Part shown: piece by piece, positions 31,079 to 48,543 of the stretch
Numbering within the stretch: the stretch's first letter is position 1
Layout of the letters: each line of letters starts with the position of its first letter
Source: Patescibacteria group bacterium
Lineage (GTDB): Bacteria; Patescibacteriota; Patescibacteriia; Patescibacteriales; JAQVLT01
Direction: 5' to 3'
Assembly: GCA_028704015.1 (NCBI GenBank)
Contig: JAQVLT010000006.1
Coordinates: 10,102 to 74,101, forward strand
DNA length: 64,000 nt
Program-made: the position numbers and the translations under genes
Notes under the pieces: generated by a model
Database searches by the model: none
Told to the model about the DNA's origin: nothing
Seen by the model: only the letters and a program-made list of their open reading frames with translations

Positions 31079-31897
31079 TTACAACGGACTTTTGATATTT
31101 TTTAAACTTGGTTTTGTCACCTGCGTATAAATTTGAGTAGTCCTGATATTGCAATGACCCAAGAGCTCCTGCACATATCTCACGTCTGTGCCGTTTTCTA
31201 AAAGATGCGTAGCAAAACTATGACGCAATGAATGGAAAGTTGCGTCTTTTTTTATTTTAGCTTTGGTCAAGGCATTTTCAAAAATCTTCTGCGCCGTTCT
31301 GTCGGTTAGCTTGCCGCCTTGATTACTTTCAAAAACCAAATCTTCGCCTCGCCTTCCCGCCAAATAATTTTTTAATTCTTCCCGCAATTTCTCCGGCAGA
31401 AGCGTAACCCGATCTTTTTTTCCTTTAGCTTCTTTCAAGTGAATAAAATTATTGGCGAAATCGACATCTTTTACTTTTAAATTTATGGCCTCGCTCACTC
31501 GGAAGCCAGCACCGTAAGATAAGGCAACCAATAGTTTGTGTTTGCCATTGCTTATCGCACCAATCACTTCTTCAATTTCCTCGCGCGACAAAACCACCGG
31601 CAATTTTTTGGAAGTCTTGGCAAATTTTAAATCAATCGCCACCGCGCTTTTAAAAATTTCCCGGTAAAGATGTTTAATGGCGTTGAGATGAAGATTTATC
31701 GTCTGCGACGACAAACCGCGTTCTTGTTTTTTCAGCAAATATTTTTTTATCAACTCAATCTCCGGATCTTTTTTGACTACTTTAATAAATTTAAAATAAT
31801 CAACCAAGCAACCAAGGTAGCTCTTAATCGTTTGCCGGCTGTAATTCCGCAGTTTTAATTCATTCTCAATTTTTACCAACAACTCTTTAAATTCCAT
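31079..31897 (-). CDS. tyrosine recombinase, integron-integrase-like but lacking the IntI-specific insertion
   Basis: 272 aa. Box I GAGFRVSEAINLKVKDVDF, KGKKDR, box II HSLRHSFATHLLENGTDVRYVQELLGHCNIRTTQIYTQV (R..H-x-x-R..H..Y). N-terminal SAM-like RNYSRQTIKSYL. Confidence 0.9.
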   Translation of the reverse strand: MEFKELLVKIENELKLRNYSRQTIKSYLGCLVDYFKFIKVVKKDPEIELIKKYLLKKQERGLSSQTINLHLNAIKHLYREIFKSAVAIDLKFAKTSKKLPVVLSREEIEEVIGAISNGKHKLLVALSYGAGFRVSEAINLKVKDVDFANNFIHLKEAKGKKDRVTLLPEKLREELKNYLAGRRGEDLVFESNQGGKLTDRTAQKIFENALTKAKIKKDATFHSLRHSFATHLLENGTDVRYVQELLGHCNIRTTQIYTQVTKPSLKNIKSPL

Positions 31898-32007
31898 ATT
31901 ATTATGTTATACTTAACAACAAGAGTGCTGTTACTAACAAAATACCAAAATTTCGCATAATATACAACGACAAGTAGTTAATTAACATAAAATTCGTATA
32001 AAAACTA

Positions 32008-32186
32008 GTTCCGCCGAAATCGCTCGCTTACGCTCGCTCCTTTTCGGCGGAACGGCTTCGGAATCCTTCCTCGTCCCGCTCAGTCGCTCGCTCACGCTCG
32101 CGACATCGCGGAACTCGGAATACGCGAAATTGCCTTTCGTCCCGAAGCGTCGGGACTCCGGCAACTTCGCTTATTCCGAAGCCGTT
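32008..32186 (+). repeat. 179-bp GC-rich ORF-less element, copy E1 (at the attI-like junction)
   Basis: GTTCCGCCGAAA...TTTCGGCGGAAC hairpin, then a GGCTTCGGAAT...ATTCCGAAGCC long stem, bounded by GTT on both sides. Identical to E2 and E3 by eye. Confidence 0.95.
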
Positions 32187-32290
32187 ATACGCCATAATAA
32201 AAAGCCTCTTTTATTTTTAGTAATAATTTTGGCAATTTATTTTGTGAGGTCGACGTATAATTTTTTAAGTAATATTAATTAACAAAAAAT

Positions 32291-32581
32291 ATGCGAGACA
32301 AAATTACATTTACACAAAACAACCCAGGAGGACAAACTGGATTTGACAGATTCGAAGAAATTATTACGACATTAAACCCCGATCTTCAGGCCATCCTGAA
32401 GAGAATTCCTGAAGAAAAAATTGCACAAATGCTTAAAACATTCGGTGAAGCCGGAATAACGCCTGATAAAATAAATTTCACATCTGCTCTACCTAACTTT
32501 TCTTCTAAAGATAATAATGTTATTTTTACTGGGACCAAGGCCGACGGCGAAGAAGTTAAATATGGTATTGATGTGGCTTAG
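32291..32581 (+). CDS. hypothetical protein (cassette C1)
   Basis: 96 aa. The ORF is bracketed by an about 45 bp inverted repeat (32193-32243 / 32586-32631). Confidence 0.55.
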   Translation: MRDKITFTQNNPGGQTGFDRFEEIITTLNPDLQAILKRIPEEKIAQMLKTFGEAGITPDKINFTSALPNFSSKDNNVIFTGTKADGEEVKYGIDVA

Positions 32582-32631
32582 GATAAATTAAATTGCCAAA
32601 ATTATTTTATTAATAGAGGCTTTTTATTACA

Positions 32632-32833
32632 GCGTATAACAACGCATATCTGGCTACGGAAATTGTGCATTAATAGAAACCTTGAGGTGGCACAATTTCC
32701 TCCGCCCAAATCCCGCACTAATTTTTGTGGGATTTGGATGGAGTTAAGCATTTAAAGAAGTTTGCATTAATTTATTGCTTGTTTAAGAAACAACGAAAAA
32801 TTAGCGCGGGACTTCAGATGATGCGTAAACGTT
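32632..32833 (+). other. attC-like site 1
   Basis: GCGTATAAC-AA-CGCATATCTGG ... CTTCAGATGATGCG-TAAAC-GTT. Confidence 0.65.
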
Positions 32834-33009
32834 CCGCCGAAATCGCTCGCTTACGCTCGCTCCTTTTCGGCGGAACGGCTTCGGAATCCTTCCTCGTCCC
32901 GCTCAGTCGCTCGCTCACGCTCGCGACATCGCGGAACTCGGAATACGCGAAATTGCCTTTCGTCCCGAAGCGTCGGGACTCCGGCAACTTCGCTTATTCC
33001 GAAGCCGTT
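32831..33009 (+). repeat. 179-bp element copy E2
   Basis: Identical to E1 by eye. It starts at the GTT of attC-like site 1. Confidence 0.95.
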
Positions 33010-33089
33010 AGGCGACATATTTTAAAAACGATTCCAAAAACTTTTTTTATCGCCTTCGGCGATTTGGGGGCGAAAACTTTTTTTATTTT

Positions 33090-33098
33090 TGTTATAAT
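33090..33098 (+). promoter_or_regulatory. extended -10 element TGTTATAAT, 6 nt before ATG 33105 (possible leaderless transcript)
   Basis: Sequence tttTGTTATAATgaatacATG. No convincing -35. Confidence 0.4.
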
Positions 33099-33104
33099 GA
33101 ATAC

Positions 33105-33335
33105 ATGAATACTAAACCTTACTACAAATACAAAGATTTTTCTCTTTTTCACGGCAACTGCCTTGATATTTTAGCTAAAATTCCAGAAAATTCGGTTGAT
33201 ATGATCTTCGCCGATCCACCCTACCTACTCTCAAATGGCGGTTTTACCTGTCATGCTGGTCAAATGGTTAGCGTAAATAAAGGCCAGTGGGATGTAAGCA
33301 ACGGCCTAAAGAAAGATTTTGAATTTCATCTATGA
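33105..33335 (+). pseudogene. 5' fragment of a DpnA-like (beta-class, DPPY) N6-adenine DNA methyltransferase
   Basis: 76 aa. TKPYYKYKDF...SVDMIFADPPYLLSNGGF...VSVNKGQWD closely parallels the N-terminus of M2.DpnII (DpnA) as I recall it. It stops after about 25 percent of the expected length, and its TGA overlaps the next ATG. Confidence 0.7.
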
Positions 33336-34099
33336 AAATAATTTTTAATACAGCTCTTGCAAATAAATATACTAGCTTATCTCAAAAAGCCAGAGTTTTA
33401 ACTGAAACATGGGTTGACAATGAAATATTTTGTCCGAGTTGTGGGACAAATATTGAAAATTATGAAAATAATCGTCCAGTAGCTGATTTTTATTGCCCAA
33501 ATTGCAAAGAGGAATATGAATTAAAAAGCAAAAAAGATGGTTTGTCTAAAAAAATTGTTGATGGAGCTTATAAAACAATGCTTGAGAGATTAAAAAGCAA
33601 TAATAATCCGAACTTTTTTTTCTTAAATTACAATCCGATAAAATATGAGGTTTTAAACTTCTTGGTTATCCCAAAACATTTTTTTGTCCCTGATATCATC
33701 GAGAGAAGAAAACCATTATCAGAAAACGCTAGACGAGCTGGCTGGATAGGTTGTAATATCTTGCTTCAAGCTATTCCGCAAAGCGGAAAAATATTTTATA
33801 TAAAAAATGGAAATATTGAGAGCAAAGAGGATGTCTTAAAAAATTGGCAAAAAACTTTATTTTTAAGAGACTCAGACAAAGCTGAATTAAAAGGCTGGAT
33901 TTTAGATATAATGAGTTGTATTGATAAATTGAATAAAATAGAATTCTCTCTCGATGAAATTTATAATTTTGAAAACATTTTAAGCAAAAAACATCCGGAA
34001 AATAGACACATCAAAGATAAAATAAGGCAGCAACTACAATTTCTGAGAGACAAGGGGTATTTGAAATTTTTAGACAGAGGAAAATATAAATTAGTTTAA
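33332..34099 (+). CDS. DpnI-like methyl-directed (type IIM) restriction endonuclease
   Basis: 255 aa, collinear with remembered DpnI. SQKARVLTETWV, CPSC...NNRPVADFYCPNC zinc ribbon, EYELKSKK (D-EXK), NNPNFFFL, ARRAGWIGCNI, and the C-terminal wH IRQQLQFLRDKGYL..GRGKYKL. Confidence 0.8.
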   Translation: MKIIFNTALANKYTSLSQKARVLTETWVDNEIFCPSCGTNIENYENNRPVADFYCPNCKEEYELKSKKDGLSKKIVDGAYKTMLERLKSNNNPNFFFLNYNPIKYEVLNFLVIPKHFFVPDIIERRKPLSENARRAGWIGCNILLQAIPQSGKIFYIKNGNIESKEDVLKNWQKTLFLRDSDKAELKGWILDIMSCIDKLNKIEFSLDEIYNFENILSKKHPENRHIKDKIRQQLQFLRDKGYLKFLDRGKYKLV

Positions 34100-34301
34100 A
34101 ATTATGGAAATCAACATCAGCCCTTTACTGGCAAAAAATATTTTACGAATTAATTTTCTCACAAGAATAAAAATTATGTGCCGCGGATATAGTGAAGATA
34201 AAAAAAATTTCACCGAGCTTGTTTGGCCAGACGACAAAGATCTTGATTTTTACAACAAGAAAGATTATCCGCAATTTCAACTTTGGTTTATTTGAATTTA
34301 A

Positions 34302-35144
34302 ATGAAATATTCTATGGAAACTAATCATATTGCTATTTTTAAAGGCAAATCAATTAGAAAAACTATTTTTCATAACGAGTGGTGGTTTTCGGTAATTGAC
34401 GTTGTCGAAGCTCTAACCGGTACGGGCAGACCTAGAAAATATTGGAATGATTTAAAGAAAAAGCTACTAAGCGAAGGATTTTTTGAAGTGTCCGAAAAAA
34501 TCGGACAGTTTAAATTAATGGCTTCAGACGGCAAAATAAGAGAAACTGACTGCGCCGATACCGAGACAATGTTTCGTATTATTCAATCTATTCCATCACC
34601 AAACGCCGAACCATTTAAGCGCTGGCTAGCTAAAGTTGGTTACGAAAGAACCCAAGAAATTGAGAATCCTGAGCTGGGAATTAAAAGAACAAAGACTCTT
34701 TACAAACTTAAAGGATATTCTGAGGACTGGATTGAAAAGCGCATGCGTGGTATTACTATACGTGAAGAATGGACCGATGAATGGAAAAAACGAGGCGTTA
34801 AGGAAAATATCGAGTTTGCTATCTTAACCGCCGAAATATCAAAAGCAACTTTCGGCATGACACCAAGCCAATACAAAAAATTTAAAGGCTTAAAACGAGA
34901 AAATTTGCGAGACCACATGGACGACCTTGAATTAATTTTTTCTATGCTCGGCGAAGCTTCAACTACAAAGATTACTAGAAGCAAAAATGCAAATGGTTTT
35001 ATCGAGAATAAAACTGCCGCCCAGAAAGGCGGAAAAATCGCGGGTGATGCCAGGCGAAAACTTGAGGTTGAATCCGGCGACAAGGTTATTACTAGAAAAA
35101 ATTATTTAATAGGCGCTCAAAATCTTAAAAAACTAAAAAAATAA
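34302..35144 (+). CDS. Bro-N domain protein (antirepressor/DinD-like)
   Basis: 280 aa with the N-terminus IAIFKGKSIRKTIFHNEWWFSVIDVVEAL, typical of Bro-N. Confidence 0.65.
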   Translation: MKYSMETNHIAIFKGKSIRKTIFHNEWWFSVIDVVEALTGTGRPRKYWNDLKKKLLSEGFFEVSEKIGQFKLMASDGKIRETDCADTETMFRIIQSIPSPNAEPFKRWLAKVGYERTQEIENPELGIKRTKTLYKLKGYSEDWIEKRMRGITIREEWTDEWKKRGVKENIEFAILTAEISKATFGMTPSQYKKFKGLKRENLRDHMDDLELIFSMLGEASTTKITRSKNANGFIENKTAAQKGGKIAGDARRKLEVESGDKVITRKNYLIGAQNLKKLKK

Positions 35145-35250
35145 AAAAATTTTCGCCCCAAATCTAATTCGCTTCGCGAATTATAAAAAAAGTTTTTGGA
35201 ATCGTTTTTAAAATACGCTAAAGCCACGCTGCGCTCTCGCTATCGCTCGG

Positions 35251-35348
35251 GTCGCCTAACAACCGATATCCGGTTCGGGGCTCAGCTCGCCCCTCTCCCA
35301 TATTTTTGCTCCCGTTGGTCGCAAAAACATCGGATATCGCGAAACGTT
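35251..35348 (+). other. attC-like site 2
   Basis: GTCGCCTAAC-AA-CCGATATCCGG ... CATCGGATATCG-CGAAAC-GTT. Its R'' is the exact reverse complement of GTTAGGCGAC at 33007. Confidence 0.7.
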
Positions 35349-35524
35349 CCGCCGAAATCGCTCGCTTACGCTCGCTCCTTTTCGGCGGAACGGCTTCGGA
35401 ATCCTTCCTCGTCCCGCTCAGTCGCTCGCTCACGCTCGCGACATCGCGGAACTCGGAATACGCGAAATTGCCTTTCGTCCCGAAGCGTCGGGACTCCGGC
35501 AACTTCGCTTATTCCGAAGCCGTT
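35346..35524 (+). repeat. 179-bp element copy E3
   Basis: Identical to E1 by eye. Confidence 0.95.
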
Positions 35525-35544
35525 ATATGACATTTTAAAAAAAT

Positions 35545-35922
35545 ATGAATACGGAGCAATTGAAAAACAACAAATATTTTCTAGGATGCTATACAGACCC
35601 CGGAGCGTTTAACGGGTGGCAAATTGGGTCATTTTTTCCTGAAAACCATCCGTGCAGAACTGACATGGTTGAATTATTGTATAAAGAGCATGCCGCCGGA
35701 GATACAGAAAAGCCCCATTACCACAAACAAAAAATTGAATTAATAATCATGCTCGAGGGACAAGCCAAGTATAACGTAAACGGAAAAGATGTTCTGTTAG
35801 AAAACAGCAATTTTTTATTTGTAGATACAAACAATGTTATTTACGGGGAATTTCTAAAGCCTTCGAAAATATTTGTAGTGCACACACCTAGCCTGCCTAA
35901 GGATAAAACTTTAATTGAGTAG
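35545..35922 (+). CDS. cupin-fold protein (cassette C3)
   Basis: 125 aa with the HYH..E..LEG cupin-like motif PHYHKQKIELIIMLEG. Confidence 0.55.
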   Translation: MNTEQLKNNKYFLGCYTDPGAFNGWQIGSFFPENHPCRTDMVELLYKEHAAGDTEKPHYHKQKIELIIMLEGQAKYNVNGKDVLLENSNFLFVDTNNVIYGEFLKPSKIFVVHTPSLPKDKTLIE

Positions 35923-35938
35923 AAATTTTTTTAAAACA

Positions 35939-36058
35939 TCATATAACAAAGAATATCTGGTTCAAGAATTTTTCTTGTTAATGTATAAGGAGTAAAAATT
36001 CTTTCACCCAAATTTTATTTCACTACGTTCAATAAAACTTCAGATATTCTTATACGTT
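35939..36058 (+). other. attC-like site 3
   Basis: TCATATAAC-AAA-GAATATCTGG ... TTCAGATATTC-TTATAC-GTT. Confidence 0.65.
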
Positions 36059-36232
36059 CCGCCGAAATCGCTCGCTTACGCTCGCTCCTTTTCGGCGGAA
36101 CGGCTTCGGAATCCTTCCTCGTCCCGCTCAGTCGCTCGCAAGCTCGCGACATCGCGGAACTCGGAATACGCGAAATTGCCTTTCGTCCCGAAGCGTCGGG
36201 ACTCCGGCAACTTCGCTTATTCCGAAGCCGTT
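36056..36232 (+). repeat. 177-bp element copy E4 (short variant GCTCGCAAGCTCGC)
   Basis: Same as E1 except for a 2-nt shorter inner hairpin. Confidence 0.95.
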
Positions 36233-36376
36233 AGCTGAAATATATATTTTTCTTTTGCCCTGCGGGGCAACTCTTAAAAAGAATTCAATTTTTGTTTTTT
36301 TATTAATTAGAAAGGGGTAATAAGTGTTTTCTTCGCTACGCTACAAAAACGATTTATTAATTAATCCAAAAAATAT

Positions 36377-38548
36377 ATGAAGAAACAATTAACAATTCTA
36401 CTAATTCTAACTTTTATTTTAGGGTTAGTGCCTTTCAATTTTTCAGAGGCGATTACTCAAAATCAAATTAGTGCCGAGGTTCAAATTGTTTGCCCGGACA
36501 ACTACGGAAATTGGTATAGCGGTTCGGGAACAATCATTGATCCTAAAGGAATTATTTTGACAAATAAGCACGTGGTATCCGACCAATATGGCGGAATTAT
36601 AAAAACCTGCTTTATTGGCTTTACGGAATCCATAAGCCAAGAACCAAATTTTGGTACTGAAACAAACCCAAATTTGGCAGAGGTAAAGTATTATACGACT
36701 GCAAATGATATGGATGCGGCTATCTTGTATCTCAATAATCTAACAAATAAAAGCTACGCTTATGTTGATATATGGAATTCCAACTCAAACGCTTTGCAAT
36801 TCGGCCACAAAATTGAAGCTATTGGTTTTCCCGGTATTGGCGGCTCGACAATAACTTATACTTCTGGCGATTTTAGTGGTTTTGGTAGTACGTCAGACGG
36901 AACACAAAATTACCTAAAGGCCACAACTCCACTCGAACATGGCAACTCTGGTGGTGCGGCATATAATCCAACAGGGCAATTTATCGGCATTCCAACAATG
37001 GTGGTTGCTGGCACTTTAAATTCTTTAAGTTATATCTTATCCGTCAATAGTATTAAAAGTTGGTTGTCTGGGATTTTAGGAAATAATTATCAACAAGAGG
37101 TTATCGAGCAAAAACCAATCGTAGAAAAACCAAAAGTCAGCGTGCAGAACGATATCACGCCGCCCGACATTAGTAAGTATAAACCAATTGCTACATGGAA
37201 TACGTTTATTTATTATGATTTATATAATAAAAATAATGAAACAATAAAAATGGGTCAATCAATAGATAATAAAATTATTCAAACTGGCATTTCTAACAAA
37301 ATTTCCTTATACACAAGCTACTCAGGAGATAAGACTTGGAATAAAACTATGGGTTATGACGTGGTTGAAAGTGAAAGCGGACTTTACAGTGTTTATTATA
37401 AATTCTCAAATAGTTTATCAGGATTAAACGATAAACCTTATGAAGAACAGGTGTTAAAATTAGATCTTGGCAGAACTGCAATTACTCCAATAATTGAATT
37501 ACCCGATAAAGAAGGCAGTTATTATTTTTCAATTAAATTTAAAGATAACGCAGGGAATGTTTCAAATGAATACATTTTAACGTATACATATTTAAAAGAG
37601 CATTATAAAGAATTAAAAACTTTGTATTTTTATTCTGATAAAAATTATAAAAATCTAATTGGTAGTTACGACATGAACTTTCTCTTTGATGGTTTTGATT
37701 ATTTGCGATGTATCACAAAATATAATACTGTCTATGTTCGATGGAAATATGATGATGACGATCAATTTCCTGGTTATGTAGCGAGAATCTTCCCTGACGA
37801 TATGTACGCGCTCAACCCTTCGGATACTATCAATAATAAAAACCTATCTTTAATAACAAATAATAAAATTCCCGTATATAATATAAATAAGTCAACAAAA
37901 GACGATCATGTATCCGATCTAAAAATATGCATGGATAAAAACGATACTCTGTGCAATTTAAGTGGCCAGGTAACATCGCTTTTGCTAAAACCAGTTGCAA
38001 ATAAGGACCTTTTTTTGGAAGGCAAAAATACTGTTGTAAAATTTCATTACAATTCAAATTTTGATCAAGGGTTTATGTGTGGATATCCTGATATAGAAAA
38101 TGAAAGTAAGCGCAATGCCATAGGAGAACCAAATTATTATATTCTAACTCAAGGTAATACTAATGCATCTAATGATTTATCGGAAAAGTTAAGCGGCCGC
38201 ATATTATTGCAAGTTGAAGCTCATGGTGAAGCTTATTATGTATATCCTAAAGACGGCAAAAGATACTATATGGCCAACGGTAATGAAGCATACAGAATAA
38301 TGAGATATTTAGGTGTTGGTATAACCAACAACGATTTGAATAAAATCAAAAATGATAAAAATTTCGCTAAAAAACACAGCGGAAAAATATTTTTGCAGGT
38401 TGAATCTCGTGGCGAAGCCTATTATATAGACTTTAACGGCAACGCCCATTATCTAAAGGATGGCGCCGCTGCATATACCGCCATGAGAGAATTAGGGCTT
38501 GGGATTACTAATAATAATTTAAATAAAATTCCAGAAGGAAGATTGTGA
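36377..38548 (+). CDS. secreted trypsin-like (S1/S1C-type) serine peptidase with large C-terminal extension and two terminal repeats
   Basis: 723 aa. Signal peptide or TM, TNKHV (His), DMDAAIL (Asp), GNSGGAAY (Ser). Two about 55-aa C-terminal repeats (LQVEaHGEAYY...GITNNdLNKI). Confidence 0.7.
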   Translation: MKKQLTILLILTFILGLVPFNFSEAITQNQISAEVQIVCPDNYGNWYSGSGTIIDPKGIILTNKHVVSDQYGGIIKTCFIGFTESISQEPNFGTETNPNLAEVKYYTTANDMDAAILYLNNLTNKSYAYVDIWNSNSNALQFGHKIEAIGFPGIGGSTITYTSGDFSGFGSTSDGTQNYLKATTPLEHGNSGGAAYNPTGQFIGIPTMVVAGTLNSLSYILSVNSIKSWLSGILGNNYQQEVIEQKPIVEKPKVSVQNDITPPDISKYKPIATWNTFIYYDLYNKNNETIKMGQSIDNKIIQTGISNKISLYTSYSGDKTWNKTMGYDVVESESGLYSVYYKFSNSLSGLNDKPYEEQVLKLDLGRTAITPIIELPDKEGSYYFSIKFKDNAGNVSNEYILTYTYLKEHYKELKTLYFYSDKNYKNLIGSYDMNFLFDGFDYLRCITKYNTVYVRWKYDDDDQFPGYVARIFPDDMYALNPSDTINNKNLSLITNNKIPVYNINKSTKDDHVSDLKICMDKNDTLCNLSGQVTSLLLKPVANKDLFLEGKNTVVKFHYNSNFDQGFMCGYPDIENESKRNAIGEPNYYILTQGNTNASNDLSEKLSGRILLQVEAHGEAYYVYPKDGKRYYMANGNEAYRIMRYLGVGITNNDLNKIKNDKNFAKKHSGKIFLQVESRGEAYYIDFNGNAHYLKDGAAAYTAMRELGLGITNNNLNKIPEGRL

Positions 38549-38605
38549 TAGCAAAATAGAAACGATAAATATAAATTTTAAAAAATTAGCCTTAAACAAA
38601 AAACA

Positions 38606-39811
38606 ATGATTAGTTTTGAAGTTAAAAATAATTTTCTTATACTTATCTACAATGCAGAGAGCGAAAACAATGAATGGGTTTTTAATAAAATAAAAGAGTC
38701 TGGTAAAGTTACACTCAGACAAACTTTTACTTTCACCGAGGAAGATTTACATAACATTAATCTAAAATCAGTAGATGAAAATGATTATGAAAAACCAATA
38801 AAATTTTCACTTGCGAAATTAGCAGATGGCTATTTTAAAATTGAAAAAAGAATATTACTAATAGATTATTTTGTATTTATATATAAAGACGTAAAAATAT
38901 CATTAAATTTTTTTATGTCAACAAAAAACATCTCAATATTTAAAATAATAAATAAACTAACAAGCGAAGATGTTTACATTGGGGGTAATAGCCCTGATGC
39001 CATACCCAAAAAAGTTTTTTTTGAACTTATTGAAAATTTTCCCAATAATTATGAGGTAGCTAAATACGTTAACGCACGTATTAGCTCCATTTTAAGAGAC
39101 TATTTTGACTCAACAATCGATAGCGAAAAAGAATACAATCAATACATGAATAAAAAAATAAGTCATAGGGGAAAAAATTTATCAATCCTATTTGTGGATA
39201 ATGAACTAAATAAATATAAAATCATTTTAGATAAACTCAGGGAGATGCTAAAAGATGAAGATAAATATAACGAAAAACAATGGCAAGAAGAAATCATACA
39301 AATAATATTATTTATATTTCCCAAATATATTAGAGTTTTTAACGAAGCTCCTGTAAGGGACACATACAACAACAAAACAAGACTTATTGATTACTTATTA
39401 ATTGATTCAAATGGAAATACTGATATTATTGAAATAAAAAAACCCTTTAGTCATTGTATTGTAACAAAAACCGTATACAGAGATAACTACATCCCCTTAA
39501 GAGAATTATCTGGTACCGTTATGCAAATCGAAAAATATATTTTCTATCTGAATAAATGGGGAAAAAAGGGTGAAAATAAATTAACAAATAAATATAAAAA
39601 CGAGCTTCCAAACAAATTTCAAATAAAAATTACAAACCCTGGCGGTATTATAATTATGGGTAGAGAAGATAAACTATCAACAGCTCAAAAACATGACTTT
39701 GAAGTAATAAAAAGAAAATATAAAAATATTATTGATATTATAACTTATGATGATTTACTGAAAAGATTGCAATTTATTATAGATCGATTAGAAAATTTAT
39801 CCAAAAAATAA
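38606..39811 (+). CDS. Shedu-like (DUF4263) PD-(D/E)xK nuclease
   Basis: 401 aa. C-terminal LIDYLLIDSNGNTDIIEIKKP (D...ExK), QIEKY, PGGIIIMGR, ITYDDLL, as in SduA-family proteins from memory. Confidence 0.6.
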   Translation: MISFEVKNNFLILIYNAESENNEWVFNKIKESGKVTLRQTFTFTEEDLHNINLKSVDENDYEKPIKFSLAKLADGYFKIEKRILLIDYFVFIYKDVKISLNFFMSTKNISIFKIINKLTSEDVYIGGNSPDAIPKKVFFELIENFPNNYEVAKYVNARISSILRDYFDSTIDSEKEYNQYMNKKISHRGKNLSILFVDNELNKYKIILDKLREMLKDEDKYNEKQWQEEIIQIILFIFPKYIRVFNEAPVRDTYNNKTRLIDYLLIDSNGNTDIIEIKKPFSHCIVTKTVYRDNYIPLRELSGTVMQIEKYIFYLNKWGKKGENKLTNKYKNELPNKFQIKITNPGGIIIMGREDKLSTAQKHDFEVIKRKYKNIIDIITYDDLLKRLQFIIDRLENLSKK

Positions 39812-39830
39812 TTAATTAAAATGCTATAAT

Positions 39831-39896
39831 GAGTTTTAGATTATGGGCATTCACCCCTAACCCCTCTGCCCAAAATCTAAAACGAAAAAAACAAAA
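39831..39896 (+). repeat. conserved hairpin with C-rich loop (TTTTAGATTaTGGGCA-TTCACCCCTAACCCCTC-TGCCCAAAATCTAAAA), copy 1
   Basis: A near-identical copy lies at 47763-47825. Both sit after the last ORF of a cassette. Confidence 0.85.
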
Positions 39897-39954
39897 CTGA
39901 ATTCTTTTTGCGAGTAATCCCAATAGCTATCGGGATTAAAGAAAAATATATACA

Positions 39955-40054
39955 TCAGCTAACACGGCATATCCGGTTGCGGCTTTTATACAAAAGCCTA
40001 CACCCACATTTGCCTCCGCTACGCTACGGCAAACATCAGATATGCCGAAACGTT
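39955..40054 (+). other. attC-like site 4
   Basis: TCAGCTAAC-AC-GGCATATCCGG ... CATCAGATATGCC-GAAAC-GTT. Its R'' is the reverse complement of GTTAGCTGA at 36230. Confidence 0.7.
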
Positions 40055-40228
40055 CCGCCGAAATCGCTCGCTTACGCTCGCTCCTTTTCGGCGGAACGGC
40101 TTCGGAATCCTTCCTCGTCCCGCTCAGTCGCTCGCAAGCTCGCGACATCGCGGAACTCGGAATACGCGAAATTGCCTTTCGTCCCGAAGCGTCGGGACTC
40201 CGGCAACTTCGCTTATTCCGAAGCCGTT
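40052..40228 (+). repeat. 177-bp element copy E5 (short variant)
   Basis: Identical to E4 by eye. Confidence 0.95.
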
Positions 40229-40420
40229 ATACGCAATTCAAAAAATATTTTTCTTTTAATAAGGAATTTTGACAGGCTTTTTAAAAAGGGGAATAAATTT
40301 GTTTTTTTATTTATTAGAAAGGGGTAATATTGTGTTTTTTCTGCTTTTGGAGGCGCAGAAAAAACGATTTACTTACAAGGGGAAAACGGGTACTATACAA
40401 TTACTTATTAGGAATAAACT

Positions 40421-41614
40421 ATGGCAAATAAAAATCTTACAAATGCTAAAAAGGCAAAGAATGATGAATTTTATACTCAATTTTCAGATATTCAAAAAGA
40501 AGTTGAGTCCTATCTTGAATATGACGCTAACACTTTCAAAGGGAAAGTAGTTTATAGCAACTGCGACGACCCATTTGAGAGTAATTTCTTCCGCTATTTT
40601 GTCCTAAATTTTAAAAGACTAGGGATGAAAAGACTTATTGCAACTAGTTACAAACCGTCACCAGTTGCGAATACTCAATTAGAGCTTTTTGGAAATGATA
40701 CTACTCTTAAACCCATGAAAGGACGCCCGAAAATAACTGCTAATAAATTCATTATTAACGAAGTTGGTGATGTGAATGGCGACGGTTCTTTTACGCTAGA
40801 AGATATTGCCCTACAACTTAAAGCAAACAAAAACAACGAATGGTCTCCGCTTGAGGGTGATGGTGACTTCAGGAGTGATGAGTGTGTCGAGTTACTCAAG
40901 CAATCTGATATTGTCGTCACTAATCCTCCGTTTAGTTTATTTCGTGAATATATAACTCAACTCTTTGAACATAAAAAACAATTTCTAATCATCGGAAATC
41001 TCAATGCAATAACTTACAAGGAAATTTTTCCAATGATCAAAGCGAATAAAGTTTGTTTGGGAAATAATGCAAGAGTTAATGGTGGTGCAATGTTTTATGA
41101 GATTCCAGAAGCTGTTGCAAACTTGGATCAAGTTCGTGAAATCAAAACGGATGAAAAAGGTAAAAAGGTATATATAACAAGAGTCCAGGGAGTTCGTTGG
41201 TTTACAAACCTTGACCACGGACGACTACACCAACCTATTCCCCTAATGAGTCATGCCGACGTCTTAAAGTTCAGTACAAATAAGCCATTCGTACACTATG
41301 ACAATTATGATGCTATTGAAATTGCTTTAGTAAAAAATATTCCTAAAGACTACAACGGCGTTATGGGCGTACCAATCAGTTTTTTAGATAAGTATTCACC
41401 CGATCAATTTGAGATTTTAGGGACAAGCGATAACGGTCTCGTAGATGACAAGTACAAAACATCGCTAGGTTTAAAAAAACAATTTGTAGAAGACTACTAC
41501 AAAGCTGGGGGCACTGGTGCCTACAAAGAAGGTAATCCAACAGCGGGTTTTTACGAAGACGGCATCGCAAAAATGGCTTACAAGCGAATTTTTATAAAAC
41601 ACAAGAAAAACTAA
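40421..41614 (+). CDS. N6-adenine DNA methyltransferase, EcoRI-methylase-like family
   Basis: 397 aa with N-terminal NDEFYTQ and catalytic VVTNPPFSLF (NPPF). Confidence 0.75.
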   Translation: MANKNLTNAKKAKNDEFYTQFSDIQKEVESYLEYDANTFKGKVVYSNCDDPFESNFFRYFVLNFKRLGMKRLIATSYKPSPVANTQLELFGNDTTLKPMKGRPKITANKFIINEVGDVNGDGSFTLEDIALQLKANKNNEWSPLEGDGDFRSDECVELLKQSDIVVTNPPFSLFREYITQLFEHKKQFLIIGNLNAITYKEIFPMIKANKVCLGNNARVNGGAMFYEIPEAVANLDQVREIKTDEKGKKVYITRVQGVRWFTNLDHGRLHQPIPLMSHADVLKFSTNKPFVHYDNYDAIEIALVKNIPKDYNGVMGVPISFLDKYSPDQFEILGTSDNGLVDDKYKTSLGLKKQFVEDYYKAGGTGAYKEGNPTAGFYEDGIAKMAYKRIFIKHKKN

Positions 41615-41615
41615 C

Positions 41616-42878
41616 ATGAAAAAAGTTAAAGTTTCAATTCAAGATGAAAACACGTTGGTTTTATTAGAAGATGGATCAAGGGGTGATTTAATTGACCTCA
41701 GGTCCATACATGAAGCTGATATTGATAAAACAACCATTACAAATGTGGTTAACTCCATAAAACGTGATGTTTTTAATGCTGAACTCCAAAAAGAAAAAAA
41801 TGTCATTAAGCGTGAAAATGAATTAAAGCTTGAACTCAAGGAAAAAGAGTTCAAAAGCCGCGCAAAAGAAGATTTAATGGAGAAAGACAAGGAAATTATT
41901 GCACTTAATTCAGAACTAAAAAATATCGCTGAGAAAACAGAATCAGCTATAAAACTTAAAGATATTCAAGAGAAGCAAAAGATAGAGGAGGAATACAGAG
42001 AAAAGTTGAACGAGAAAGAAATTGAGATAAATAACATCAAGCACGAGAAAGAATTAAGCGAGGAAAAACTAAAAGAACAAATCAAGTCAACAGAGACAGC
42101 TCTTGTTTCACTAAAGGAAATGCGCACCAAGATGAGTACTAAGATGATTGGTGAGTCTCTTGAAGTACACTGCGAAAATGAATTTAATCGTATTCGTCAT
42201 ATAGCATTTCCTAATGCAAAGTTTGGTAAAGATAATGCCGTATCAGAATCTGGTTCAAAGGGAGACTACGTTTATCGCGAAGTTGATGAAGATGGCAATG
42301 AGATTTTGTCCATTATGTTTGAAATGAAGAACGAGGATGACATTACCGCTACAAAGAAAAAGAATAAAGATTTCTTTAAGGAACTAGATAAAGATCGTCA
42401 GGAGAAAAAATGTGAATATGCTGTCTTGGTAAGTCTCCTTGAAAAAGATAATGAATATTATGATGACATTGTTCCTGTTTATGAATATAAACTTATGTAT
42501 GCTATCCGCCCCCAGCATTTCATTACTATCATTGGATTTCTACGACAAGCAAATATAAAATCACAGCACCTCAAGCGTGAAATTCACATACTTAACAATC
42601 AAAATGTTGACGTTTCAAACTTTGAAGCAAACATGAATGCATTTAAGGAGGCATTCTCAAGAAATTTCAGTTTGGCATCAACACAATTCTCTAACGCTAT
42701 TGCAGAGATAGATAAAACCATTGACCATTTAAATAAAGTCAAAGAAAATCTTCTAAAATCTGATAACAACCTACGACTTGCAAATAATAAGGCCACCGAC
42801 TTATCTATAAAGAAACTAACCTCCAATAGTCCAAGCGTAGCCAAAGCATTCGAAGAAATTAATAATGAAAATAAATAA
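41616..42878 (+). CDS. DUF2130 protein (coiled coil plus C-terminal PD-(D/E)xK-like module)
   Basis: 420 aa. [47 protein letters not shown] match the DUF2130 pattern from memory. Confidence 0.7.
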
Positions 42879-42880
42879 TT

Positions 42881-44044
42881 ATGAAAACCACACTAAAAAA
42901 TGACATCACGATAAAAGAAGTTTGCGATGGTTTTGTATATAATGAACTTGAAGGCAAAGGGCTGTTCGGTCTCTCGGGCAAACTAACTATTCAGCCAGAG
43001 TATCAGCGTAATTACATTTACGCTGACGGCAAATGTGACGTTGCTGTAATTGACTCAATTTTAAAAGGTTACCCAATAGGTTTAATTTATTTCAACCATG
43101 TTAGCACTGATAAATTTGAAGTGCTCGACGGACAGCAACGCATCACTAGTATTGGTCGGTTTGTGACAGGCAAGTTTGCCGTCAAAGATAAAAATGGACA
43201 TGAACAATATTACAGTGGCATGGCTACCAGTCAACGCGAGCAAATAATGAACGCTAAATTGTTAGTGTATTTGTGTAAAGGTGATGAGCTTGAGATTAAG
43301 GATTGGTTTAAAACTATCAATATCGCCGGAGTACCATTAACCGAACAAGAGATTCTCAATGCAGTATATTCTGGAACATTTGTTACTCGCGCTCGCGAAG
43401 AATTCAGTAATAGCCAAAATACCAACATTCAGAAATGGAGTACCTATATTGCAGGTGATATCAAACGCCAAGCATATTTAGAACGGGCTTTAGATTGGGT
43501 TTCTGGTGGAGAAATCGATAGCTACATGAGTAAACATCGGAACGATAAAAACATCACTGAACTGAAAAAGCATTTCGATACTGTCATTGACTGGGTTTCA
43601 ACCACCTTCACGGACGTTGAAAGTGAAATGAAGGGTCTTGAGTGGAACAGGCTTTACCAAACTTACCACAAGAAAAAATACAACCCAGCAATAGTTTCTG
43701 CTAAGGTTCAGAAACTCTATGCTGACGGCTTTGTAAAAAGTCGTAAAGGCATTTTTGAATATGTTTTAGGTGGAGAAGTAGAAACAAAACTGCTTGAAGT
43801 TCGAGTATTTGAAGACCCGACAAAACGTTCAGTGTATGAAGCTCAAACTTCCGCCGCAAAAAATAAAGGCATTTCAAATTGCTCGCATTGCGCGATTGGT
43901 CACGATGCGAACAAAACGAAAATTTGGGGTTTGAGCGATATGGATGCCGATCATGTTTCGGCTTGGAGCAAGGGCGGTGCAACAGATGTAAAAAATTGTG
44001 AGATGTTGTGTAAGACGCACAATCGAGCAAAGGGAAATCGTTAA
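42881..44044 (+). CDS. DUF262 (ParB/GmrS-like, DGQQR) plus C-terminal HNH endonuclease
   Basis: 387 aa. [19 protein letters not shown], and C-terminal [32 protein letters not shown]. Confidence 0.75.
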
Positions 44045-44145
44045 CCAAATAATTAAAATCAGTATGGAAAATGCTTAAAAAATAAATTGAGGATATAATG
44101 GAGAAAGTGAAATGTACATATATAATTTAGGCTAAAGACAGCAAT

Positions 44146-44173
44146 AAAAAACGCCTACCGGGGGCGTTTTTTG
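44146..44173 (+). terminator. intrinsic terminator
   Basis: AAAAAACGCC-TACCGGG-GGCGTTTTTTG. Confidence 0.75.
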
Positions 44174-44247
44174 TATTAATAGAGTTAAATACAGAAAGGT
44201 AAAGCATAAAAGAAAATGATAATTATTTGTTTTTGTGTCCCATTTTG

Positions 44248-44276
44248 TTGCGCTGGTGTCCCAAATATGCTAATAT
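44248..44276 (+). promoter_or_regulatory. promoter TTGCGC-17-TAATAT flanked and overlapped by a GTGTCCCA direct repeat
   Basis: tttGTGTCCCAttttgTTGCGCtgGTGTCCCAaatatgcTAATAT. It lies 40 nt upstream of the AAA ATPase gene. Confidence 0.5.
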
Positions 44277-44316
44277 ATTAAGTGTGGATAAAATAAATTC
44301 ATTTCATTTAAAATAA

Positions 44317-45363
44317 ATGTATATGCGCAAAAAAAACATTTTAAATTTAATTAAATATCATGCCGAAAAAAATGAGGCGGGTTTTAAAAATGAAGCCTAT
44401 GACATAGCAAGATATTTCGATTCTACTGGTGACTCTGAATTGGCTCAATATATTATGGCCTTACTGTCTGGCGCTAATACTTTTGTGCCGCAGGACAACG
44501 AATACAATCTTCCATTTTTTATGAAAGCAAATTTAGATAGTAGCAAATCCTTCCCACTTCCCACTCTTATAACAAACGATATAGTGGGCATTATAAATTC
44601 AATTGGACATAAGATTGGGGTTAACAAATTCTTATTTGAGGGTGATCCTGGAACAGGCAAAACTGAAACAGCAAAACAAATTGCTCGTATTCTTGAACGA
44701 GATTTATATGTGATAGATTTTGATAGTGTTATAGATAGCAAGCTTGGTCAAACGTCCAAAAACATTGCTTCCGTTTTTACAGAGTTACAAAGATTGCCTC
44801 ACCCAGAAAAAGTCATTATTTTATTTGACGAGATAGACGCAATAGCTTTAGATAGAATTAACTCTAACGATTTACGAGAAATGGGGAGAGTAACTTCTTC
44901 TGTTTTAAAAGGGTTGGATGGATTAAATGATGAAGTTGTTCTTATAGCCACCACTAATCTTTTTGGGCAATTCGATAAGGCTTTACTTAGAAGATTTGAT
45001 TCAATTATAAATTTTAATAGGTATAACAAAGAAGAATTGATTGAAGTCGCAGAATCTATGTTAAATGAGTTTTTAACAAAATTTAAATTTGCTAGTCGTA
45101 ATATGAGGCTTTTTAAAAAAATATTTTTAACATTAGACCATATTCCTTATCCTGGTGATTTGAAAAATATAATTAAAACCGCACTAGCATTTAGTGATCC
45201 AAATAATGAATATGATTACTTAAAAAAATTATATGAATCTATACAACCTAAAGACAAAAAGATAGATTTAAAAAAATTACAGTACAGCGGTTTTACGGTT
45301 AGAGAAATAGAAATATTAACAGGAGTTTCTAAAAGCCAAGTGTCGAGAGAACTAAATGTCTAA
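44317..45363 (+). CDS. AAA+ ATPase, IetA-like, with C-terminal HTH
   Basis: 348 aa. Walker A GDPGTGKTE, Walker B VIILFDEIDA, ATTN sensor. C-terminal FTVREIEILTGVSKSQVSREL. Confidence 0.75.
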   Translation: MYMRKKNILNLIKYHAEKNEAGFKNEAYDIARYFDSTGDSELAQYIMALLSGANTFVPQDNEYNLPFFMKANLDSSKSFPLPTLITNDIVGIINSIGHKIGVNKFLFEGDPGTGKTETAKQIARILERDLYVIDFDSVIDSKLGQTSKNIASVFTELQRLPHPEKVIILFDEIDAIALDRINSNDLREMGRVTSSVLKGLDGLNDEVVLIATTNLFGQFDKALLRRFDSIINFNRYNKEELIEVAESMLNEFLTKFKFASRNMRLFKKIFLTLDHIPYPGDLKNIIKTALAFSDPNNEYDYLKKLYESIQPKDKKIDLKKLQYSGFTVREIEILTGVSKSQVSRELNV

Positions 45364-47611
45364 AATTATGAACAATATTCTTCAATTAAAAGGTGTCCTT
45401 CAAGAACGTTCGCATATTGGCCGGCCAAGCTCTCGTAATGTTCCAAAAAATTCCCCAACTATAAATTCTGATAAACTAAAAAATTTGGTTAGACAGCTCC
45501 AGGATCTTGCTGATTATTGGACTAGGCAAAATATTATTAAGGGTTGCTTAGTTGATGTTTGTTATATCGACGTCATCGCTAAGAGTAATAGAATTAGTGG
45601 GTTATTATCAAGTAGTGGCTCTGTAAATGACTCTGTTGTTGGTGCAAGATTTGCTAATGAAGAGACAAGAAAACATGTGATTACGCATCATGTCAGCGAA
45701 AAAGTAATTCAGGATACAATTAAAAAATTAGAAGGCTGTATAAAGCTATTAGATGAAATATTTAGCGGAAAGATAACCCATGATTTGATTGGTGGTTTAA
45801 ATGATAAAAATATAAAGTATGAAAAATATGGGGTAACAAAAACAAATTTTCGAAATATAATTGTAGATTCACATTATGTAGAAGGTTTTACGGTTCCAAA
45901 TAACAGTGCAAACACAAATAATAGATCAATAATTACAATATATAAAACTAATGTTGGTTTAACTGAATTAATGAAAGATATCGGTATAAACGTTCAGCCT
46001 GATAAAATACTAAGTGAAACCACCTTGCTTTTATACCCAGATGAAATCAAACTCTTGTCAGACAAGGCACCATATCTAATTGCAATGTCGACAGAAGATA
46101 TATCTAAACTAAGTTTTAAAGATATTGTTGATGGCGCAAACAGCGAATCTGCTATAAAAACAATAGGATCACCCAAAGACGAACCTATTGTTGGCGTAAT
46201 AGATACTTTATTTGATGAATCAGTGTATTTTTCTGAATGGGTGGATTTTAGAAAAATGATCAATAAAGAAATACCTACGGAATCCAAAGATTATGTTCAC
46301 GGAACATCGGTAAGTTCAATTATTGTTGATGGGCCAACTATTCACCCAGAGCTAGATGATGGGTGTGGCAGATTCAGAGTTAGGCATTTTGGTGTAGCCG
46401 CACAAGGACAGTATAGCGCCTTTTCTATTATGAAAGCCATAAAAGAGATAGTTACTTCAAATCCAGATATAAAGGTATGGAATCTGTCTTTGGGATCCGA
46501 CAGAGAAATTAATCCCAATTTTATATCACCAGAAGCAGCTATACTAGATGAAATTCAATATGAAAATAATGTTATTTTTGTAATAGCAGGCACTAATAAA
46601 CGCGACGATGAAAGTAGGGTAGAAAAAATGATTGGCTCGCCCGCCGATTCAATTAATGCTATAGTTGTAAATTCGGTAAATAGTAAGGGATCTCCAGCAA
46701 CCTATTCCAGAAAGGGGTTAGTTTTATCATTTTTTAATAAACCAGACGTTAGTAGTTATGGAGGTGATAATGGCGATTATCTTAGGGTGTGTACACCAAC
46801 TGGCGAAGGTTTGTGCAGTGGTACTTCATACGCAGCTCCATGGGTAACTCGAAAAATTGCTTACTTGATAGAAGTACTCGGACTTAATCGAGAAGTCGCA
46901 AAAGCGCTAATTGTAGACGCTGCTGCTGGGTGGAATAGTATTGGCAATAATACTAAATTAGCACCCTTTGTGGGCCATGGGGTAGTACCTAAAAATATAG
47001 AAAACATTATAAAAGCGGATAATGATGAAATAAAGTTTATCATAAGTGGTATCTCTGAGAAATGGGATACATATGCTTATAATTTACCTGTTCCAACACA
47101 TAATAATAAACACCCTTTTGTTGCCAAAGCTACCTTATGTTATTTTCCCGGCTGCTCTATTAATCAAGGAGTTGATTACACAAACACAGAACTAGATATA
47201 TATTTTGGTAGAATTAAAGACAAGGGTATTAAGTCTATAAACAAGAATTGTCAAAATAATGATGACGGCGAAAAACATTATATATACGAAGGTAATGCCA
47301 GGGAATTTTACCGAAAATGGGACAACACTAAACATATAAATGAAATTCTTACAGATAGAGTTCATGCACGCGACGTTTACGATAAAGGCATGTGGGGACT
47401 AAGTATTAAATCAAAAGAAAGATTGAGTAGGCGTAGCAATGGTATTAATTTTGGTTTAGTTGTGACATTAAAGGAGATTTATGGAGTTAATAGAATTAAT
47501 GATTTTGTACATCAATGCGAATTACTTGGCTGGTTGGTAAATCGTGTAGATATAGATAATAAAATTGATATCTATAACAAGGCTCAGGAAATAGTTACAT
47601 TTGATAAGTAA
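45356..47611 (+). CDS. S8 subtilisin-like serine peptidase, IetS-like
   Basis: 751 aa with triad contexts VGVIDTLFD, HGTSVSSII, GTSYAAPWV. It overlaps the ATPase gene by 8 nt. Confidence 0.75.
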   Translation: MSKIMNNILQLKGVLQERSHIGRPSSRNVPKNSPTINSDKLKNLVRQLQDLADYWTRQNIIKGCLVDVCYIDVIAKSNRISGLLSSSGSVNDSVVGARFANEETRKHVITHHVSEKVIQDTIKKLEGCIKLLDEIFSGKITHDLIGGLNDKNIKYEKYGVTKTNFRNIIVDSHYVEGFTVPNNSANTNNRSIITIYKTNVGLTELMKDIGINVQPDKILSETTLLLYPDEIKLLSDKAPYLIAMSTEDISKLSFKDIVDGANSESAIKTIGSPKDEPIVGVIDTLFDESVYFSEWVDFRKMINKEIPTESKDYVHGTSVSSIIVDGPTIHPELDDGCGRFRVRHFGVAAQGQYSAFSIMKAIKEIVTSNPDIKVWNLSLGSDREINPNFISPEAAILDEIQYENNVIFVIAGTNKRDDESRVEKMIGSPADSINAIVVNSVNSKGSPATYSRKGLVLSFFNKPDVSSYGGDNGDYLRVCTPTGEGLCSGTSYAAPWVTRKIAYLIEVLGLNREVAKALIVDAAAGWNSIGNNTKLAPFVGHGVVPKNIENIIKADNDEIKFIISGISEKWDTYAYNLPVPTHNNKHPFVAKATLCYFPGCSINQGVDYTNTELDIYFGRIKDKGIKSINKNCQNNDDGEKHYIYEGNAREFYRKWDNTKHINEILTDRVHARDVYDKGMWGLSIKSKERLSRRSNGINFGLVVTLKEIYGVNRINDFVHQCELLGWLVNRVDIDNKIDIYNKAQEIVTFDK

Positions 47612-48531: not shown

Positions 48532-48543
48532 TTTTGAAAAACA

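Follow-up and report, generated by a model that had tools for sequence, protein, structure and literature searches.

What is a guanine-cytosine (GC)-rich unit without a gene doing at seven junctions of one gene-cassette array? The question is raised by a 64,000-nt stretch from a Patescibacteria group bacterium (assembly GCA_028704015.1, contig JAQVLT010000006.1, positions 10,102 to 74,101 of the forward strand; hereafter the window, in whose numbering coordinates are given unless another locus is named). Here, seven near-identical elements lacking an open reading frame (ORF), E1 to E7, are interleaved with gene cassettes beside a tyrosine recombinase gene. We consider it probable that the element (E) is a site-only mobile cassette which the adjacent recombinase would move via a folded single strand, and that it is probably selfish. 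Since paralogous non-coding cassettes were described in Vibrio in 2006, the kind of thing is already known; what is new here is the family, its reduction to a self-complementary fold with two alternative site modules, and the host system.

Seven copies of one element at cassette boundaries

BLASTN of the reported interval against the window returned exactly seven full copies, all on the plus strand (E = 1e-68 to 1e-91), a 24-nt eighth fragment corresponding to the element 3' end at 50638-50661, and no copy outside the array. The copies begin at 32008, 32831, 35346, 36056, 40052, 48003 and 49119, as an earlier sequence-only reading had proposed. That reading had the starts right, but included both GTT triplets in the element; by the cassette convention (TT...G) the copies measure 174-194 nt between their G|TT boundaries, as follows.

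32009..32184, plus strand: E1, full element, first cassette at attI
32832..33007, plus strand: E2, identical to E1, after the attC of cassette c1
35347..35522, plus strand: E3, identical to E1, after the attC of c2 (DpnI / Bro-N cassette)
36057..36230, plus strand: E4, hairpin 2 shorter by 2 nt, after the attC of c3 (cupin)
40053..40226, plus strand: E5, identical to E4, after the attC of c4 (trypsin-like protease and Shedu SduA)
48004..48179, plus strand: E6, one substitution (T to C in L'), after the attC of c5 (7.8-kb defence-type cassette)
49120..49313, plus strand: E7, the most divergent copy, with a 20-nt CCTGCC..GGCAGG mini-hairpin inserted in the loop of hairpin 1

The relationships among the copies agree with those read by eye before: E1, E2 and E3 do not differ in sequence, E6 departs from them by one substitution, and E4 and E5 match each other, their inner hairpin being 2 nt shorter. 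That hairpin also has one substitution in E4 and E5. E7 also carries the E4/E5 indel, together with four substitutions and the 20-nt hairpin insertion in its first loop. Similarity among the copies ends sharply at the GTT on either side, and the repeat does not reach into the flanks. The copies are far richer in GC than their surroundings, as had been noticed (60% against 37% for the window), and they have no coding potential: 2-nt and 20-nt indels separate them, the substitutions follow no codon-like pattern, and the minus-strand ORFs of 55 amino acids need flanking ATGs that are found in only three copies.

Their placement at the recombinase-proximal end, in alternation with gene cassettes, was likewise confirmed in the window. 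The statement that the attC-like sites which they abut all differ from each other did not stand. E1 is preceded by an attI-like, non-attC sequence (TTCGTATAAAAACTAG|TT) and the remaining six copies by gene-cassette attCs, of which the ones preceding E5 and E6 hardly differ from each other, and a 3' motif, AAACATCAGATATGCCGAAAC, is common to most.

The small GC-rich palindrome CCTGCC..GGCAGG occurs four times in the window (29431-29446, 49144-49163, 61205-61225 and 62451-62471; 0.01 expected by chance). As one of the four is the E7 loop insertion, it represents a separate mini-hairpin repeat.

A conserved predicted fold with two site modules

The last ~80 nt of the element are a recombination site of the kind represented by the attCs of the gene cassettes. 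The first ~100 nt hold, without any gene, segments complementary to the element's own ends (hairpin 1, outer arm, decoy). The parts of E1 are as follows.

32009..32052, plus strand: hairpin 1, TTCCGCCGAAA / TTTCGGCGGAA with a 22-nt loop; its 5' arm agrees with the cassette-start (right-arm) consensus; 7 of 9 pairs covary in the family
32051..32064, plus strand: outer 5' arm AACGGCTTCGGAAT (outer R''-spacer-L''), with its partner at 32173-32186; 100% paired in 24 variants
32067..32104, plus strand: 'decoy' TTCCTCGTCCCGC, pairing with the inner R''/L'', then hairpin 2 GTCGCTCGC..GCTCGCGAC; helix P3 91% paired, with four covarying pairs
32107..32134, plus strand: inner R''-TC-L'' module CGCGGAAC-TC-GGAATACGCGAAATTGCC, in the layout of gene-cassette attC 5' halves (TAAC-AC-GGCATATC)
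32160..32186, plus strand: L'-spacer-R' GGCAACTTCGCTTATTCC-GAAGCC-G|TT; this 3' half aligns by eye with gene-cassette AAACATCAGATATGCC-GAAAC-G|TT

Covariation was assessed on 24 distinct variants for a fold that we call conformer A (hairpin 1, outer stem, decoy paired with inner R''/L'', hairpin 2 and an L''/L' stem), with 500 shuffles and slid controls for comparison. In this set 93.8% of the cells are paired and 17 pairs have changed on both sides, against a shuffle mean of 5.9; none of the 500 shuffles reaches 17, and the slid controls give at most 5. The outer stem of 13-14 bp, with AAC/GTT at its base, closes a branched core. Its crossover pair has changed from C:G to T:A in four variants, two others carry matched 1-bp deletions, and locus L048 (L numbers denote loci on other contigs) shows several compensated changes in this stem. 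In all four variants concerned the 3'-terminal G/A covaries with the element's own outer AAC/AAT, so that this base must be counted as part of the element, with the crossover 3' of it.

Covariation across variants therefore backs the fold, and it is the bottom strand that is favoured. Mismatches of the type A.C on the top strand, which are G:T on the bottom strand, occupy 45 cells, distributed over 11 pairs, the reverse being seen in 6 cells (4 pairs), and the bottom strand gives the more stable fold in 43 of 43 variants, by 7.5 kcal/mol on average. Single sequences compared with shuffles gave z = -5.4 for top-strand and -7.4 for bottom-strand DNA.

When the 3' end is joined to the 5' end, a perfect 23-bp palindrome centred on G|TT results. 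In the predicted closed circle of single-stranded DNA (ssDNA), hairpin 1 abuts the outer stem with no unpaired base, giving a helix of ~23 bp with G|TT in its middle, and the dumbbell ends in a loop of 22-70 nt on one side and the branched core on the other. Hairpin 1 prolongs the outer stem to this loop, which lies where other cassettes carry genes and whose length varies freely across the family. The earlier picture of a circularised element, an R''/L''...L'/R' hairpin closing on a 22-nt loop, agrees with the predicted circular fold.

Besides the outer arm, every element contains an inner R''-spacer-L'' module, ACWTC-nnn-TAAC-AC-GGAATACGCG, which resembles gene-cassette attC 5' halves in layout and sequence and with which the internal decoy GGTTATGC pairs in conformer A. 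All four R-box segments (element start, outer R'', decoy, inner R'') covary as a set, in three sequence classes with a fourth in L123. The inner R'' is thus complementary to G plus the first bases of the element, with which it could pair only in a circle or a tandem. In the canonical inner fold (conformer B) pairing reaches 91%, with weaker covariation support, and this fold lies 0.6-2.5 kcal/mol from conformer A (out of ~60) in 22 of the 24 variants, the family mean being 1.7. It has an asymmetric spacer of 2 against 6 nt and a conserved C/T mismatch, comparable to the 2-against-5 central spacer of the gene-cassette attCs. A shortened copy in L072 has kept only the leader and the inner site, still between two G|TT junctions. 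We also considered the inner canonical attC as the sole conserved fold and rejected it: the crossover change from G to A is compensated at the outer and not at the inner AAC, and L009 keeps the decoy pairing and breaks the inner L box. By these predictions the conserved fold is that of conformer A, with conformer B as a plausible alternative substrate.

Two structured cassettes without an ORF, from different subfamilies, stand in tandem in L072 (498-788 on the reverse strand, in reversed coordinates). The outer stem of the other subfamily is AACGGCCGCGCC/GGCGCGGCCGTT, and the E copy is deleted between repeated TCGCTCGCT motifs.

A GC-rich island in an AT-rich genome, with covarying helices and a very stable predicted RNA fold (-89 kcal/mol, z = -7.4), might equally be expected of a structured RNA, be it a small RNA gene, a processing or stabilising element or an inter-cassette terminator, the DNA-level repeats then being secondary. 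We regard this explanation as very unlikely. Rfam gave no match to the element at gathering or permissive thresholds. No promoter- or terminator-like site was found inside the four copies scanned, with an E. coli-type promoter consensus that is weak evidence for members of the candidate phyla radiation (CPR), and no stem is followed by a T-run. Moreover, the strand antisense to the cassette genes consistently gives the better pairing, the ends are exact recombination junctions and the loop lengths are free. The terminator, insulator and RNA roles that had been suggested for the element thus find no support, and we rejected its assignment to a structured non-coding RNA class.

Distribution of the family

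Species-representative genomes scanned with the outer-stem pattern yielded 18 loci, 8 of them full-length homologues and 10 unrelated. The eight lie in contigs of reference metagenome-assembled genomes (MAGs) assigned to Buchananbacteria, Falkowbacteria, Saccharibacteria and Patescibacteria, along with a few low-GC MAGs labelled otherwise. A metagenome scan anchored on the inner L'' region, in which the outer stem and hairpin 1 were not forced, gave 92 contigs, five of them unrelated; about 87 of the 92 show the complete architecture, and many copies lie at contig ends. Matches are limited to CPR-type MAGs, the few low-GC MAGs with other labels and groundwater-type metagenomes. A sequence profile of the element (nhmmer) missed divergent relatives such as that in L123, which has another sequence and the same layout. 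Among viral contigs, two patterns returned no matches and two unrelated GC-rich coding matches, respectively, so that no phage origin is visible in these scans.

The element sequence is strongly conserved across lineages whose recombinases are only 42-67% identical. Contigs elsewhere hold two or three copies each, compared with seven in the window, and wherever a copy and the recombinase are on one contig their relative orientation is identical. Every copy with an examined left flank (60 complete copies) follows an attI-like or attC-like junction with (G/A)TT bounds, and the cassette-start consensus comes after it; none was found away from such sites. A dispersed repeat of the miniature inverted-repeat transposable element or repetitive extragenic palindrome type was rejected on these grounds, and also because no copy in the window lies off the array.

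The contig JAQWAV010000007.1 of assembly GCA_028707515.1 (L001), from the same organism, ends inside E4, and many metagenome contigs have E at one end or at both. Since such repeats break assemblies at the arrays, array content and defence cargo are probably under-recovered in CPR MAGs.

Independence from the neighbours and position in arrays

Each of the first five gene cassettes of the window has an E before and after it, the upstream flanks contain a conserved motif, and E-type half-sites are at times fused to gene cassettes (window 50638; L095, L101). E might accordingly be a 3' extension of the upstream attC or a 5' leader of the downstream cassette, copied with its neighbour. This explanation is now scarcely credible, being largely refuted by flanks that occur with and without E. 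Comparison across genomes revealed identical left flanks with different right flanks, and vice versa. The same attI is followed by E in L033 and by a gene cassette in L037, L045 and L050; the leader of c5 stands after E in five loci and after a plain attC in three; and the c5-type attC is followed by E6 in the window and directly by a gene cassette in L107. In addition, E1 follows attI and no attC, and the upstream motif is the common attC 3' half, present also at junctions without E. E thus forms no part of the upstream attC, and it is no leader of the cassette that follows.

Loci chosen because they contain E offer 16 distinct attI junctions, and at 13 of them the element stands directly after attI. 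In eight further loci, for which the recombinase was the sole basis of choice, the first position is held by a gene cassette in five and by an E-type ORF-less element in two or three (clear in L116 and L123/124; L126-128 are cut by the contig end), and several recombinase-anchored contigs end 140-250 nt from the recombinase. The idea that E is always first at attI was therefore discarded. Two earlier proposals can be judged on these data. That of a minimal 'empty' cassette is supported: E has cassette boundaries, occupies attI as well as attC junctions, separates from both neighbours elsewhere and has AAC/GTT at the base of its stem. That of a selfish element targeting attC needs refining: E does sit at attC junctions but, as it is often the first cassette at attI, shows no attC specificity.

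The recombinase and its attI

The array has a single orientation and starts ~110 nt from the start codon of a divergent recombinase gene, for which three features are relevant.

31079..31897, minus strand: tyrosine recombinase of 272 amino acids (aa), Xer/IntI-like without the IntI-specific insertion, divergent from the array; Pfam Phage_integrase and Phage_int_SAM_4
31993..32020, plus strand: attI-like core TTCGTATAAAAACTAG|TT with the first bases of E1; dif-like, with left arm, 7-nt centre and right arm
31951-31962: second copy of TTTCGCATAATA near attI

The recombinase scores 218.9 against the NCBIfam model XerA_Arch/integron integrase (cut-off 220) and 216, in two stretches, against the integron-integrase model TIGR02249 (cut-off 265). 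Among PDB structures VchIntIA (2a3v) is its best match, but the alignment leaves out residues ~212-243 of VchIntIA, which we take to be the location of the IntI-specific insertion with the I2 helix; archaeal XerA (4a8e) matches equally well and in one stretch. By the TIGR02249 score and this skipped segment, the enzyme lacks the additional domain specific to integron integrases. Its family is very large, with more than 7,000 matches at E <= 1e-30. The best 120 show 68-86% identity, and most have a length of 272-278 aa. Relatives are named XerD or "tyrosine recombinase/integron integrase" and come from Parcubacteria, Moranbacteria, Paceibacterota and others.

In recombinase-anchored loci with a readable junction, 93-115 nt separate the recombinase start from the same attI site upstream of it. 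From 21 attI junctions the consensus aanTTCGcATAtaAACgAG|TTATGccgAAaT was obtained; aligned by eye with E. coli dif (taken from the literature), it agrees at 8/11 and 10/11 positions of the two arms around a 7-nt centre, so attI and the cassette starts resemble dif arms in sequence. A chromosomal dif at the replication terminus was considered for this site and rejected: GC skew is negative to the left and to the right of the array alike, and without a sign switch at attI the site is not positioned like a terminus dif.

Recombinase, attI and divergent array occur together in every recombinase-anchored locus sampled (window 31079-32020; loci L113-L130), and the core genes on the far side vary by locus (def-fmt, scpAB, mnmA-alaS, lepA, miaA). 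This platform looks like a CPR-wide integron-like system. We found no report of integron-like arrays, Xer/dif or cassettes in CPR, Patescibacteria or Parcubacteria, nor of the element, in the literature searched. The setting may even outweigh the element in importance, given a very large, conserved CPR recombinase family beside such arrays in every locus sampled, without the insertion that is held to have turned Xer-like enzymes into integron integrases, and with a dif-like attI. Should the arrays function as their appearance suggests, both the origin of integrons and the capture of genes by ultra-small bacteria would become directly testable.

It is in this setting that a further reading may be put forward tentatively. 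The element could represent, in its smallest form, the unit of a proto-integron that is widespread in CPR and has not been described, in which an Xer-type recombinase without the I2 helix and a dif-like attI would capture cassettes via folded ssDNA sites, a living intermediate between Xer/dif and the integron. The 5' module of E would then be the native right half of attI, and the two folds a DNA switch between a duplex-like, fully paired form and a bulged, attC-like form, gating attI-like and attC-like behaviour. Solo E 5' modules (hairpin 1 and an R''-L''-type half) are indeed present at array ends adjoining core genes, at L018:3726-3790 (secE-nusG-rplK) and similarly, on the reverse strand, in L098 and L075. 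The module may be the native right half of attI, in which case solo copies would mark array ends.

How the element might move

Returning to the site-only mobile cassette as the explanation that we prefer, the following course of events would account for the element. A single strand of DNA, preferentially the bottom strand, would fold so that hairpin 1 stands beside an outer stem closing the branched core. With the ends joined, hairpin 1 and the outer stem would stack into a left arm, a fully paired centre and a right arm, with G|TT in the middle. The neighbouring Xer/IntI-like recombinase would excise the element and reinsert it at attI and attC junctions. Should resolution need replication, as in integrons, excision would copy the element instead of moving it, and a tiny, cost-free, efficiently folding cassette would multiply and become interleaved with gene cassettes. 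Under such replicative excision the element is most simply regarded as a selfish passenger. The data show the boundaries, the separability from neighbours, the distribution, the covarying fold and the strand bias; catalysis by this recombinase, single-stranded intermediates, replicative spread and selfishness are inferred. From the flanking skew and the gene orientation, the bottom strand might possibly be the lagging-strand template here, which would favour folding.

Several points weigh against this explanation. The evidence for mobility comes from between-genome comparisons of circles and empty sites, and from no single population. The recombinase is devoid of the IntI I2 region, so the single-strand mechanism rests on analogy; published work treats this region as key to single-strand attC recombination (PMC7790495). 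Whereas the gene-cassette attCs are bulged, the outer stem of E is paired throughout its centre and may therefore not be the form used by the enzyme. The family members are related, which means that the covariation and the 43/43 counts are not independent events. Finally, the near-perfect alternation, the strong conservation across lineages and the solo 5' modules at array ends could point to a function for the array. As to the missing I2 helix, Xer enzymes recombine a folded single-stranded dif-like hairpin in CTXphi with exchange of one strand pair (PMC3442271, PMC3089051), and with this precedent a single-strand mechanism without I2 is plausible.

A function for the array would make E a domesticated component and no parasite: a landing pad or recombination partner, 176 bp of portable RecA homology, an insulator or a switch. 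An E on either side of each cassette might serve as homology for RecA-mediated deletion, duplication and shuffling; a structural insulator might prevent mispairing of the neighbouring, very similar attC arms; or two near-isoenergetic folds might toggle a site between active and masked. The regular alternation of E and cassettes fits such a role, being seen in the window and also in L044 (E-c-E-c-E), L027, L091 and L077. The same may be said of the E-type element first at attI in 2-3 of the 8 unbiased platforms, of the solo modules beside core genes (L018; L098/L075), of conserved motifs beyond simple attC needs (TCGCTCGCT repeats, decoy, hairpin 2) and of the closeness of conformers A and B. 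An ordinary gene cassette is first in five of the eight unbiased platforms, however, and together with the window junctions that lack E (48593, 49826 and 51531) this indicates that E is dispensable. All of the features listed are, besides, equally expected of an efficient selfish cassette, and we therefore judge domestication rather unlikely.

If the element is a cassette stripped to the part that the recombinase must see, its fold and natural variants map the recombination substrate. Such variants include compensatory changes at the crossover pair, shortened copies with only the inner site and divergent subfamilies of the same shape.

Comparison with known systems

A close counterpart in kind is found in the chromosomal integrons of Vibrio, with their paralogous non-coding cassettes (Boucher et al., 2006; PMC1382264). 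These cassettes were proposed to be selfish elements or to have a promoter or RNA function, are present in several to dozens of copies per array and are highly conserved in related species and absent outside the clade (PMC1382264). E is likewise without an ORF or a codon-like pattern, and has multiple paralogues per array and close homologues only in related taxa. Unlike the Vibrio cassettes, it belongs to a different phylum, where a sequence relationship is not expected, its cargo is reduced to a loop of 22-70 nt, it has a covariation-backed fold with two alternative R''-L'' modules, and the recombinase of its array is without the IntI insertion.

With integrons in general the system shares a divergent recombinase, an attI, an array in one orientation and GTT cassette boundaries, as well as accessory and defence cargo and attC-like imperfect palindromes (R''-L''...L'-R') with a bottom-strand folding bias. 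E itself is a GTT-bounded unit at attI or between cassettes, in one orientation, with a 3' R''-L''...L'-R' hairpin for which the bottom strand is favoured. The system differs from integrons in its recombinase, which falls under the TIGR02249 cut-off and has no stretch matching VchIntIA ~212-243, in its dif-like attI and cassette starts, and in the outer stem of E, which has no unpaired central spacer.

An Xer-type enzyme without the IntI insertion also serves CTXphi and other Xer/dif exploiters (PMC3442271, PMC3089051, PMC5357621), in which a single strand-pair exchange is completed by replication and elements accumulate in tandem at the site, much as E does. In architecture only, the E circle resembles CTXphi attP(+), where two inverted dif-like sequences fold in ssDNA and mimic a duplex core: hairpin 1 and the outer stem of E would form a duplex of left arm, centre and right arm. 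In contrast to CTXphi, E is no phage, carries no gene and was not found on the viral contigs scanned, its site is not at a GC-skew switch, and it belongs to an ordered, integron-style array with many unrelated cassettes.

The bounding of gene modules by Xer-type sites is a further likeness, to the pdif modules of Acinetobacter plasmids. There, genes are shuffled from one replicon to another in modules that have double-stranded XerC/XerD sites, in inverse orientation, on either side. We know of no adjacent dedicated recombinase, hairpin-type site or gene-less, site-only member among pdif modules.

Gene cassettes and further repeats

Two larger features complete the description of the array.

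32185..51531, plus strand: cassette array with interleaved elements; junction G's at 32831, 35346, 36056, 40052, 48003, 48593, 49119, 49826, 50659/50684 and 51531
50638..50684, plus strand: hybrid end of c9, a 24-nt E-type 3' half (50638-50661) serving as attC end, then an orphan 25-nt gene-type L'-R' half-site with a second G|TT

The 3' sites of the gene cassettes are hairpins of the form TAAC-AC-GGCATATC...GATATGCC-GAAAC-G|TTA, and the next cassette starts with TTAnnnGAAAT. Their cargo is of accessory or defence type: DpnI, Bro-N, a cupin, a trypsin-like protease with Shedu SduA, and a five-gene block of EcoRI-like methylase, DUF2130, GmrSD/HNH, AAA ATPase and subtilase. Core genes start again at ruvA beyond the array.

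At the end of c9, which encodes a DUF218 protein (50524-50684), a gene-type 5' half is paired with the E-type 3' half, and the orphan half-site that follows looks like the scar of an aberrant recombination. Similar fusions are present at L101:1234-1353 and L095:4735-4761.

Cassettes c4 and c5 begin (36231-36370, 40227-40350) with a conserved non-coding leader of 120-140 nt (...TTGTTTTTTTATTwATTAGAAAGGGGTAATA...), which heads cassettes at many other loci with 80-93% identity and may be a portable promoter or 5' untranslated region module. The attCs of the same two cassettes are each preceded, at a distance of about 130-170 nt, by a 64-nt hairpin repeat, TTTTAGATTATGGGCATTCACCCCTAACCCCTCTGCCCAAAATCTAAAA (39826-39889 and 47758-47821, 94% identical to each other), which recurs in many metagenome loci.

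Some 7 kb past the array, at 59683, there is a lone, inverted attC-type 3' half, CAACCCAAATTTGC...AACAAACTTCAGATATTTGGATACG|TTATAATTACGAAT (minus strand, about 59680-59760). A palindrome scan alone also indicated a tandem run of AATTAAC heptamers 3' of a Mur ligase gene and clustered GCGTAAC/GCATAAC repeats with an inverted partner within the region of a FemAB ORF, at 27649-27879 and 30180-30311 and also near 61820.

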